Assembly: GCF_009931435.1 (NCBI RefSeq)
Contig: NZ_CP043415.1
Origin: Escherichia coli
GTDB taxonomy: Bacteria; Pseudomonadota; Gammaproteobacteria; Enterobacterales; Enterobacteriaceae
Strand: one strand, 5' to 3'
DNA length: 64,000 nt
Shown: positions 3,642 through 5,015 of the stretch, one piece after another
How positions within the stretch are numbered: the first letter of the stretch is position 1
How the letters are laid out: every line of letters begins with the position of its first letter
The notes under the pieces: model-generated
Told to the model about the DNA's origin: nothing
The model's database searches: none
What the model saw: the letters and a program-made list of their open reading frames with translations, nothing else
Translations under genes and position numbers: made by a program

Positions 3642-5015
3642 GACGCCCTTCTAAGAGTCAAGCTGTTATCGGGATACTGTTGATCCGCCTGTTTTGATTG
3701 CGCAGTAACGTGTAAACTTCGCGGGAGATATATCGCTTTAGACAGCGTATCGCTTCCATTTTTGTATGTCCTTCGGCTACACGCCTGGCGACATATTCCT
3801 TTGTTTTTGCGTCAGTTCGTAAGCGTCCGATGGCGATGATGTGAAGTGCACTATTTGCAGCACGATCTCCACCACGATTAAGTCGGTAACGGTTCGTTTT
3901 TCCAGAAGAAACGGGGACCGGGCTGACACCACACAGTGCCGCAAATCCTGATTCTGATCTTAACCGTTGAGGATTGTCTCCGGCAGTGATCAGCAACTGT
4001 GAAGCGCTTTCGTATCCGATAGCATTACGTTTAATCAGCTCAGGTGCCAACTCGTCGACAATTGCCGCAATCATGACATCCAGATCAGCGATTTCGTCAT
4101 GTAACTAGAGATAGCGTCGGGCAAGGGACTTTAATGAAATGCGATAAACGTTGGTTACATTGCGGTATTCACTGGCATCAGGTCTCCAGGAACCCTGGGT
4201 CCTGATGAGCTGCATGCGCGTCATATTTCTGAGCTGTTCACGTAATTCATCCGGGGCAGAGATAATATTTGAATGGATAATCTGGAGAGCGACTCTGCGG
4301 GCTGATATTGCTGTTTTTCGGCAAGTTTTTAATACCCGCAGGGACTCAATCATGCCATCACGCGTTTTGGGAGTAACTGTCCTGATGCCTGAGAATGCTG
4401 CATGAGCGGCACATTCAGCATCAATTGTGTCACTTTTACCCCGTTTGCGTCGCTCCATCCGGTCTGGAGCAGTCACCTCAAGAACTTCTAACCCGGCGTT
4501 CTGAAAATAACGAAGCAAACCGGAACCATAGGTACCTGTGCACTCAACACCAATTCGTTTTAATGTCCCAAACGAGGTCATCCATGCCAGCATCTGCCGG
4601 TAACCTTGTCGTGTTGTGGAGAAATACTGAGTCCCAAGGACTTTATTGTTCTGATCTACGACAGCGGCAACGTGCAAATCTTTATGTGTATCCACGCCAC
4701 CCACAACGGCAGCTTCGGTAACTTTATCAACCATGACGGAGCTCCTGTGAGGAAACAGAGTTGAATCTCCAGACAGATAACCCGGACAGGACAGTAACGA
4801 GACAAGCCGTCAGGCCCTTCTTGAGTCACGCGCATCGGTGAGGAGATGCCTCGCATGAAGGCGCTTCCGGCAACCGACGGGTCCAGGGCAGGACACAAAA
4901 GGTCGATCGCTGTGTGAGTCAGGATGCGGGAAGGTCTTCACTGCATCAGTAATCACACCAATCTGGTTAAACGGCAAACTAAGTGGTGGTAAAGACTGAC
5001 ATCGGCATTATTACT
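3642..5015 (-). mobile_element. IS110-family insertion sequence inserted into IS911 orfB (no terminal inverted repeats, as is typical)
   Basis: IS911 OrfB sequence breaks after the HSD codon at 5016 and resumes at QGSHYT at 3641; the intervening 1.37 kb encodes an IS110-type transposase. Confidence 0.7.
3658..4734 (-). pseudogene. IS110-family transposase interrupted by a single in-frame TAG (4105-4107)
   Basis: N-terminal ORF (209 aa, VGGVDTHKDLHVAAVVD motif) and C-terminal ORF (138 aa, GVSPVPVSSGKTNRYRLNRGGDRAANSALH motif) are in the same frame, separated only by the amber codon. Confidence 0.75.

Follow-up and report, generated by a model that had tools for sequence, protein, structure and literature searches.

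A pair of minus-strand open reading frames in a 64,000-nucleotide stretch of Escherichia coli DNA (the window, by which we mean the whole stretch that was analysed) should be described as a single locus, a 1374-bp ISEc21-like element that is nested in IS911 and whose transposase gene is pseudogenised, and the two-ORF label is wrong. We hold with high confidence the overall account in which this RNA-guided element entered IS911 and was recently inactivated in a plasmid lineage by a G>T change that converts codon Glu210 into a stop (E210*). We observed directly the sequence state of the gene, the colinearity of both frames with one transposase, the ancestral codon, the boundaries of the element, its target, the complementarity between guide and target, and the distribution of the allele. 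The amber codon is a real state of the sequence and not a statistical pattern, so that the question of chance does not arise. The pseudogene is already annotated in public records of the same plasmid lineage, where PGAP labels the identical locus of NZ_CP157153.1 and NZ_CP065971.1 as 'IS110 family transposase, internal stop', and the element is of an ordinary, known type. A previous sequence-only reading of this DNA was right to recognise a pseudogene; it missed the ISEc21 RNA-guided type of the element, its 281-nt upstream part, its nesting in IS911 at the target, and the missense change L180Q.

Results

One transposase gene interrupted by an amber codon

Translation of the minus strand from 4737 to 3655 gave one frame of 359 codons, including the terminal TGA, in which codon 210 is the sole internal stop. 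The first open reading frame (4734..4105) codes for 209 amino acids (codons 4734..4108) and is closed by TAG at 4107..4105, and ten in-frame sense codons (LHDEIADLDV, 4104..4075) lie between this stop and the ATG at 4074 that opens the second frame (4074..3658, 138 aa), which ends with TGA at 3660..3658. This translation bore out the earlier statement that the two frames are in register and are split by no more than TAG and ten sense codons. The possibility that they do not belong to one gene was also examined, and both were found to be colinear with one 358-aa IS110-family transposase. The ATG of the first frame is preceded, at a distance of 8 nt, by AGGAG, a good Shine-Dalgarno sequence.

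Pfam searches identified DEDD_Tnp_IS110 (PF01548) in the first frame, at residues 13-151 (E=4.6e-20), and Transposase_20 (PF02371) in the second (E=4e-13); the latter domain, although encoded, comes after the amber codon and hence is untranslated in the window copy. The intact 358-aa homologue carries PF01548 and PF02371 in this order. When tested against NF033542, 'IS110 family RNA-guided transposase', the intact homologue scored 193.5 bits, the curated cut-off being 140 bits, and this score, together with both Pfam domains, corroborates the family assignment that had been made from the sequence alone.

To place the stop within the protein we aligned the transposase with that of IS621, the bridge-RNA recombinase of Durrant et al. 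and Hiraizumi et al. (Nature 2024). The alignment was pairwise and of low identity, with conserved motifs as anchors, and used the IS621 sequence from the paper supplement. In this alignment D15, E64, D102, D105 and S277-G278 correspond to IS621 D11, E60, D102, D105 and S241-G242, and residue 210 has its counterpart near IS621 residue 183, where the coiled coil ends and before the Tnp domain begins. Residues 123-188 of IS621 make up the coiled coil and residues 189-326 the Tnp domain, and mutation of S241 abolishes recombination (IS621 papers, Nature 2024). The 209-aa product keeps the RuvC-like DEDD domain and loses the whole Tnp domain with the catalytic S277-G278. As it lacks this domain and the catalytic serine, we infer by homology that the window copy is unable to make an active recombinase. 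The uninterrupted transposase frame that is the hallmark of an autonomous IS is absent, codon 210 being TAG.

Boundaries of the element and its target in IS911

Comparison with an uninterrupted IS911, in which the empty site reads ...CACAGCGAT/CAGGGCAG... (the slash marks the insertion point), defined the ends of the element, and the coordinates of all features are given in Table 1. The insertion amounts to exactly 1374 bp between TTC CAC AGC GAT and CAG GGC AGT of IS911 orfB, directly after the Asp codon of F-H-S-D, which is the second Asp of the DDE triad (HSD/QG), and the element has the same orientation as orfB. The span 3658-4734 proposed earlier is correct for the coding sequence but not for the full element, in which the gene is flanked by 281 nt of non-coding DNA upstream and 16 nt downstream. 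Neither a target duplication nor a shared core dinucleotide of the IS621 type was found at the junctions at any offset. Furthermore, terminal inverted repeats are absent, the two ends matching at 11 of 40 positions, which is the chance level.

Table 1. Features of the ISEc21-like element and of the interrupted IS911, in window coordinates
Feature	Position	Strand	Basis
Complete ISEc21-like IS110-family element, 1374 bp (left end 5015, right end 3642)	3642..5015	-	Uninterrupted-IS911 comparison
IS911 (IS3 family) orfB remnant, upstream part, ends TTC CAC AGC GAT (F H S D)	5016..5607	-	IS911 comparison
IS911 orfB remnant, downstream part, starts CAG GGC AGT CAT (Q G S H)	3333..3641	-	IS911 comparison
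Transposase pseudogene, internal amber codon 210	3658..4734	-	ORF listing, translation, Pfam, NCBIfam, PGAP
Amber codon TAG (GAG, Glu210, in intact copies); coding-strand G>T at 4107	4105..4107	-	Base-by-base comparison
Codon 180, CAG (Gln), CTG (Leu) in all other copies examined; change at 4196	4195..4197	-	Base-by-base comparison
Non-coding left end, 281 nt, predicted source of a seekRNA/bridge-type guide RNA	4735..5015	-	Architecture as published for ISEc21
Predicted guide segment B, CACAGCGATC	4905..4914	-	Equals left target flank plus first base of right flank
Predicted guide segment T, CTGCCCTG	4884..4891	-	Reverse complement of right target flank CAGGGCAG
Candidate -35 hexamer TTGACT, right end, overlaps TGA stop codon	3656..3661	-	Promoter search
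Candidate -10 hexamer AATAAT, left end (element nt 4-9)	5007..5012	-	Promoter search

Each of the related copies that we fetched interrupts an IS3-family gene at the homologous site; at least two IS3-family members and several unrelated genomic contexts are represented among these copies. One of them, on the 0H26 plasmid (NZ_CP081783.1 77367-78940), is intact and lies in another IS3-family member, where the flanks, ...TTCCATAGCGAC/CAGGGAAGCC..., show two mismatches to the left guide and one to the right guide; this copy is apparent natural evidence that mismatches to the guide are tolerated and that the variant has moved recently. Within the 64-kb window, tblastn and blastn detected no second ISEc21-like copy, and a 17-mer search allowing up to 3 mismatches detected no spare target site.

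Relationship to ISEc21

ISEc21 is a seekRNA-guided IS that has been studied experimentally by Siddiquee, Pong, Hall & Ataide (Nat Commun 2024, PMC11187229). The window element shows 92.3% nucleotide identity over 1374 nt with the ISEc21 copy of strain 83972, the protein of which is TnpEc21 in the supplement of Siddiquee et al. 2024; copies of this kind are named ISEc21 by PGAP. The repaired window protein differs from TnpEc21 at 10 of 358 residues. Codons that differ between the two elements comprise 75 synonymous and 12 non-synonymous cases, which points to long-term selection for a working protein between the lineages. The threshold for naming isoforms in ISfinder is roughly 95% nucleotide identity, and at 92.3% the window element consequently ranks as an ISEc21-like sister variant and not as ISEc21 itself. 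The supplement of Siddiquee et al. holds no separate ISfinder-derived entry for this variant, only ISEc21 being matched. With its long non-coding region upstream of the gene, the element belongs to the IS110 subgroup of the IS110 family, that of the IS1111 subgroup being downstream.

Guide region and junction promoter

Circle formation and transposition of ISEc21 both depend on the upstream non-coding region, which gives rise to a seekRNA of 74 nt, of which 58 nt that carry only the target-matching segments are sufficient; the segment for the bottom strand of the target precedes that for the top strand (PMC11187229). In the non-coding left end of the window element we recognised, at the sequence level, two guide segments that are respectively identical to 10 nt and complementary to 8 nt of the target, both abutting the insertion point and lying 13 nt apart. 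Segment B (element nt 102-111) is predicted to pair with the bottom strand of the target, and segment T corresponds to element nt 125-132. The order, B and then T, agrees with the published seekRNA (PMC11187229), and the predicted fold places both segments in a large loop closed by a stem.

The complementarity of segment T to the occupied right junction, GTC/CAGGGCAG, extends over 11 nt (4881..4891, element nt 125-135), including the last 3 nt of the element, against 8 nt for the empty target. This difference suggests that one loop may recognise the target when it is empty and also the right junction when it is occupied, a dual reading that seems to fit the published need for correct flanks in excision. 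Two 8-mers that resemble donor-loop matches to the circle junction (nt 63-70 and 195-202) were discarded as candidates, about 0.3 such matches being expected by chance according to our estimate and one of the two lying outside the region that is sufficient for ISEc21. A scan of positions 3300-5300 against Rfam 15 at E<=1 returned no family matching the guide region.

Nucleotides 101-200 form the stretch of 100 nt in the non-coding region that is best conserved with respect to ISEc21, with 3 differences. Over the element as a whole the divergence from ISEc21 is uneven, with 3 differences per 100 nt in nt 101-200, 1 in nt 701-800, and 7-12 elsewhere; constraint on a guide RNA or a recombinant history are possible explanations.

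A candidate promoter, TTGACT-17 nt-AATAAT (10/12 matches), is split between the two ends of the element and would exist only when these abut in a circle. In ISEc21 the formation of a promoter by joining of the ends has been demonstrated experimentally (PMC11187229). No sigma-70 promoter was found on the minus strand ahead of the element in its integrated state.

Ancestral codon and distribution of the amber allele

Comparison with intact homologues, as proposed in the sequence-only reading, placed GAG (Glu) at the position of the TAG codon, in the intact copies coding for WP_000227969.1 and in ISEc21 alike. The element and both its flanks were matched by megablast in about 500 complete E. coli genome records. 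Relative to chromosomal pap-linked copies (L002, L003) the window differs at 4 bases, one of which is 4107, these copies having GAG. The chromosomal copies (WP_024177929.1) are widespread and annotated as intact, and they have ATT in place of the ATG start (L002/L003:2817-2819, equivalent to window 4732..4734) together with T179P, so that they may also be crippled. For these two changes WP_024177929.1 was dropped as an intact reference, and the ancestor was reconstructed with ISEc21 copies as outgroup, giving an ATG start, Thr179, Leu180 and Glu210. WP_000227969.1, coded by the E. coli ECONIH4 chromosome and the 0H26 plasmid, is exactly the protein of this ancestor, and the copy of pRHB09-C15_2 (CP057943.1; protein QMO94790.1) agrees with it at every base of the 1461 nt compared.

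The window copy, which is 99.9% identical in nucleotides to the intact copies (WP_000227969.1), equals the inferred ancestor plus two changes on the coding strand, E210* (G>T, 4107) and L180Q (T>A, 4196). These are also its only differences from WP_000227969.1, and the description of the gene as complete except for a single amber codon consequently stands. L180Q was found in the window alone among the copies examined, so it is either later than E210* or an error in the window sequence; it could be a sequencing error.

A 61-mer centred on TAG was matched exactly in 2 of 546 RefSeq complete-genome E. coli records, both of them plasmids, while 543 of the 546 were one base off. The TAG carriers are NZ_CP065971.1 (Germany), NZ_CP157153.1 (USA, bovine), and CP057960.1 and CP057923.1 (both from UK cattle farms). 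E210* is the sole difference from the intact gene, over the stretch compared, in NZ_CP065971.1, NZ_CP157153.1 and CP057960.1, and it is the sole coding change in CP057923.1, which also differs at one non-coding base (window 4767). Two further plasmids, CP057943.1 from the same UK survey and the yak plasmid NZ_CP132064.1, have the same insertion in the same surroundings and keep GAG. The amber codon therefore arose in place, within the plasmid lineage, and these sister plasmids, along with the rarity of the allele, uphold the earlier suggestion that the inactivation is recent.

A decayed relative of the element (NZ_CP095856.1 3510780-3515013), about 91% identical, has stops at codons 183 and 190, and an IS21-family insertion has cost it the initial ~140 nt of the left end. 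Related copies have decayed independently, by different lesions in different lineages.

Plasmid context

pVir-like IncF plasmids from cattle E. coli, bearing cnf2, cdt-III and hlyC, are colinear with the window. The insertion sequences in 3333..9051 are nested: IS911, whose N-terminal part is at 8794..9051, has two interruptions, the ISEc21-like element (3642..5015) and IS30 (5617..6099, 8040..8726), and IS30 is itself split by IS100 (istA/istB, 6185..7985). Short fragments of IS110-family transposases, annotated in the colinear NZ_CP157153.1, are located at 999..1174 and 26955..27125; tblastn with the ISEc21-like protein at E<=1e-3 did not detect these two fragments, which are too divergent or too short. 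Virulence cargo typical of the pVir-like plasmids of necrotoxigenic E. coli occupies 11814..26845 and includes hlyC, hlyA in truncated form with a degraded group II intron reverse transcriptase behind it (12356..14448), cnf2 (15127..18171) and type III cdtABC (24703..26845). The IncFII repA gene lies at 30570..31427, and tra genes are present from ~38864 onward.

Discussion

A history of the locus can be proposed, the mechanistic part of which is taken from the literature. An element of this type (DEDD/Ser recombinase) would excise as a circle, and its joined ends would create a sigma-70 promoter from which both the upstream non-coding region, as the source of the guide, and the transposase gene would be transcribed. 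The two guide segments would pair with both strands of the target, where an IS3-family gene codes for the second Asp of the DDE triad and its neighbours. The window copy inserted into IS911 orfB at HSD/QG with no duplication of target bases. ISEc21 behaves in this way: its target is formed by the codons that surround the DDE triad's second Asp in certain IS3-family transposase genes, and it makes no duplication (PMC11187229). Later, a G>T transversion from GAG (Glu210) to TAG occurred in the pVir-like (cnf2/cdt-III) IncF lineage of cattle E. coli. Translation would then halt near the end of the coiled coil and leave the copy under neutral decay, with L180Q as a further private missense change.

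Inactivation of the gene would not necessarily immobilise the DNA. With its ends, flanks, guide and junction-promoter halves unchanged, the copy would be a passive substrate, and we infer that it could probably be mobilised if the cell also contained an intact ISEc21-type copy. Provided with transposase and seekRNA in trans, mini-elements of ISEc21 that consist of 29-bp and 16-bp ends with 15-bp flanks are mobile (PMC11187229), and the ends, flanks and guide region of the window copy are those of the intact copies, so that mobilisation in trans, which the sequence-only reading had raised, is plausible. The window copy would be a natural "mini-IS", with ends, flanks and guide but no recombinase, and a possible reporter of mobilisation in trans by a class of recombinases that is of interest for programmable genome editing. 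Furthermore, the TAG/GAG pair offers a clean lineage marker within the pVir-like cnf2/cdt-III plasmids.

Three other explanations of the stop codon have to be weighed. That TAG is a sequencing or assembly error and that the gene of the source plasmid is intact might be argued from the fact that a single base is concerned and from the nearby private change at 4196, which is in no other record examined; however, four plasmids from Germany, the USA and the UK, each sequenced independently, share this TAG, and PGAP flags the internal stop in two of them. An assembly error cannot account for four independent plasmid assemblies, and we consider this explanation barely credible. Alternatively, the stop may be real and the gene functional in spite of it, through amber suppression or read-through, or as a split recombinase made of residues 1-209 and 221-358. 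The composite active sites of IS621 do span protomers, the RuvC domain of one joining the Tnp domain of another, and there is an in-frame ATG 11 codons past the stop. Yet the stop cuts the coiled coil, which mediates dimerisation, the ATG at 4074 has no convincing Shine-Dalgarno sequence, and the window carries a further missense change, as expected in the absence of selection. Amber suppressors are, in addition, rare in natural isolates. Rescue in a suppressor background, raised in the sequence-only reading, is conceivable in principle, as are low-level read-through and re-initiation at the ATG at 4074, but nothing observed speaks for these routes. A functional gene is in our judgement extremely unlikely.

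The third explanation accepts the loss of recombinase activity and supposes that the 209-aa fragment is kept as a trans-dominant inhibitor or a seekRNA sink that damps ISEc21-type transposition, as truncated transposases do elsewhere. Its start codon is still there, preceded by a good Shine-Dalgarno sequence, the fragment keeps the DEDD domain and most of the region that serves for dimerisation, and the allele is carried by plasmids from two continents. If so, the fragment, through heterodimers or sequestration of seekRNA, would represent a brake, proper to one plasmid lineage, on an insertion sequence that targets insertion sequences. On the other hand, the allele is limited to a single plasmid lineage (2/546 RefSeq records), so that hitch-hiking on the plasmid explains its spread, and no promoter lies ahead of the integrated element. 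Moreover, no independent recurrence of a truncation at codon 210 was seen, the other defective copies having different lesions (an ATT start; stops at 183 and 190). We regard a retained inhibitor as very unlikely, and keep to a recent inactivation by E210* as the account of this locus.

Among known elements, the window copy can be compared with IS621, with ISEc21 and with the intact copies of its own variant. It has in common with IS621 a RuvC-like DEDD domain, a coiled coil and a Tnp domain with a catalytic Ser-Gly, a guide RNA that would derive from the upstream non-coding end, and a promoter that would be rebuilt at the circle junction. IS621, however, targets REP-type sequences and shares a CT core on both sides, whereas the junctions of the window element have no shared core; and IS621 has a separate donor loop, whereas one loop of the window element seems to serve for the empty target as well as for the occupied right junction. 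The similarity of the two transposases is too low for a phmmer match to PDB chains: a search with the repaired protein gave no IS621 match at E<=0.01 or at E<=10, and one spurious match only (E=1.6).

With ISEc21 the window element has in common its length of 1374 bp, a 358-aa transposase, a long upstream non-coding region and 16 nt downstream. It is the same as ISEc21 in both predicted guide segments, in the right end, in the target, in the lack of target duplication and in a promoter split between the ends, and it differs from ISEc21 at several positions of the left end (nt 1-29) and in that the copy is dead (E210*). The intact copies (WP_000227969.1) show 99.9-100% nucleotide identity to the inferred ancestor and have the same ends and guides as the window copy, from which they are distinguished by GAG at codon 210 and CTG at codon 180. 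The copy of the 0H26 plasmid resides in a different IS3-family member, while that of pRHB09-C15_2 is an intact copy in the same plasmid context as the window.
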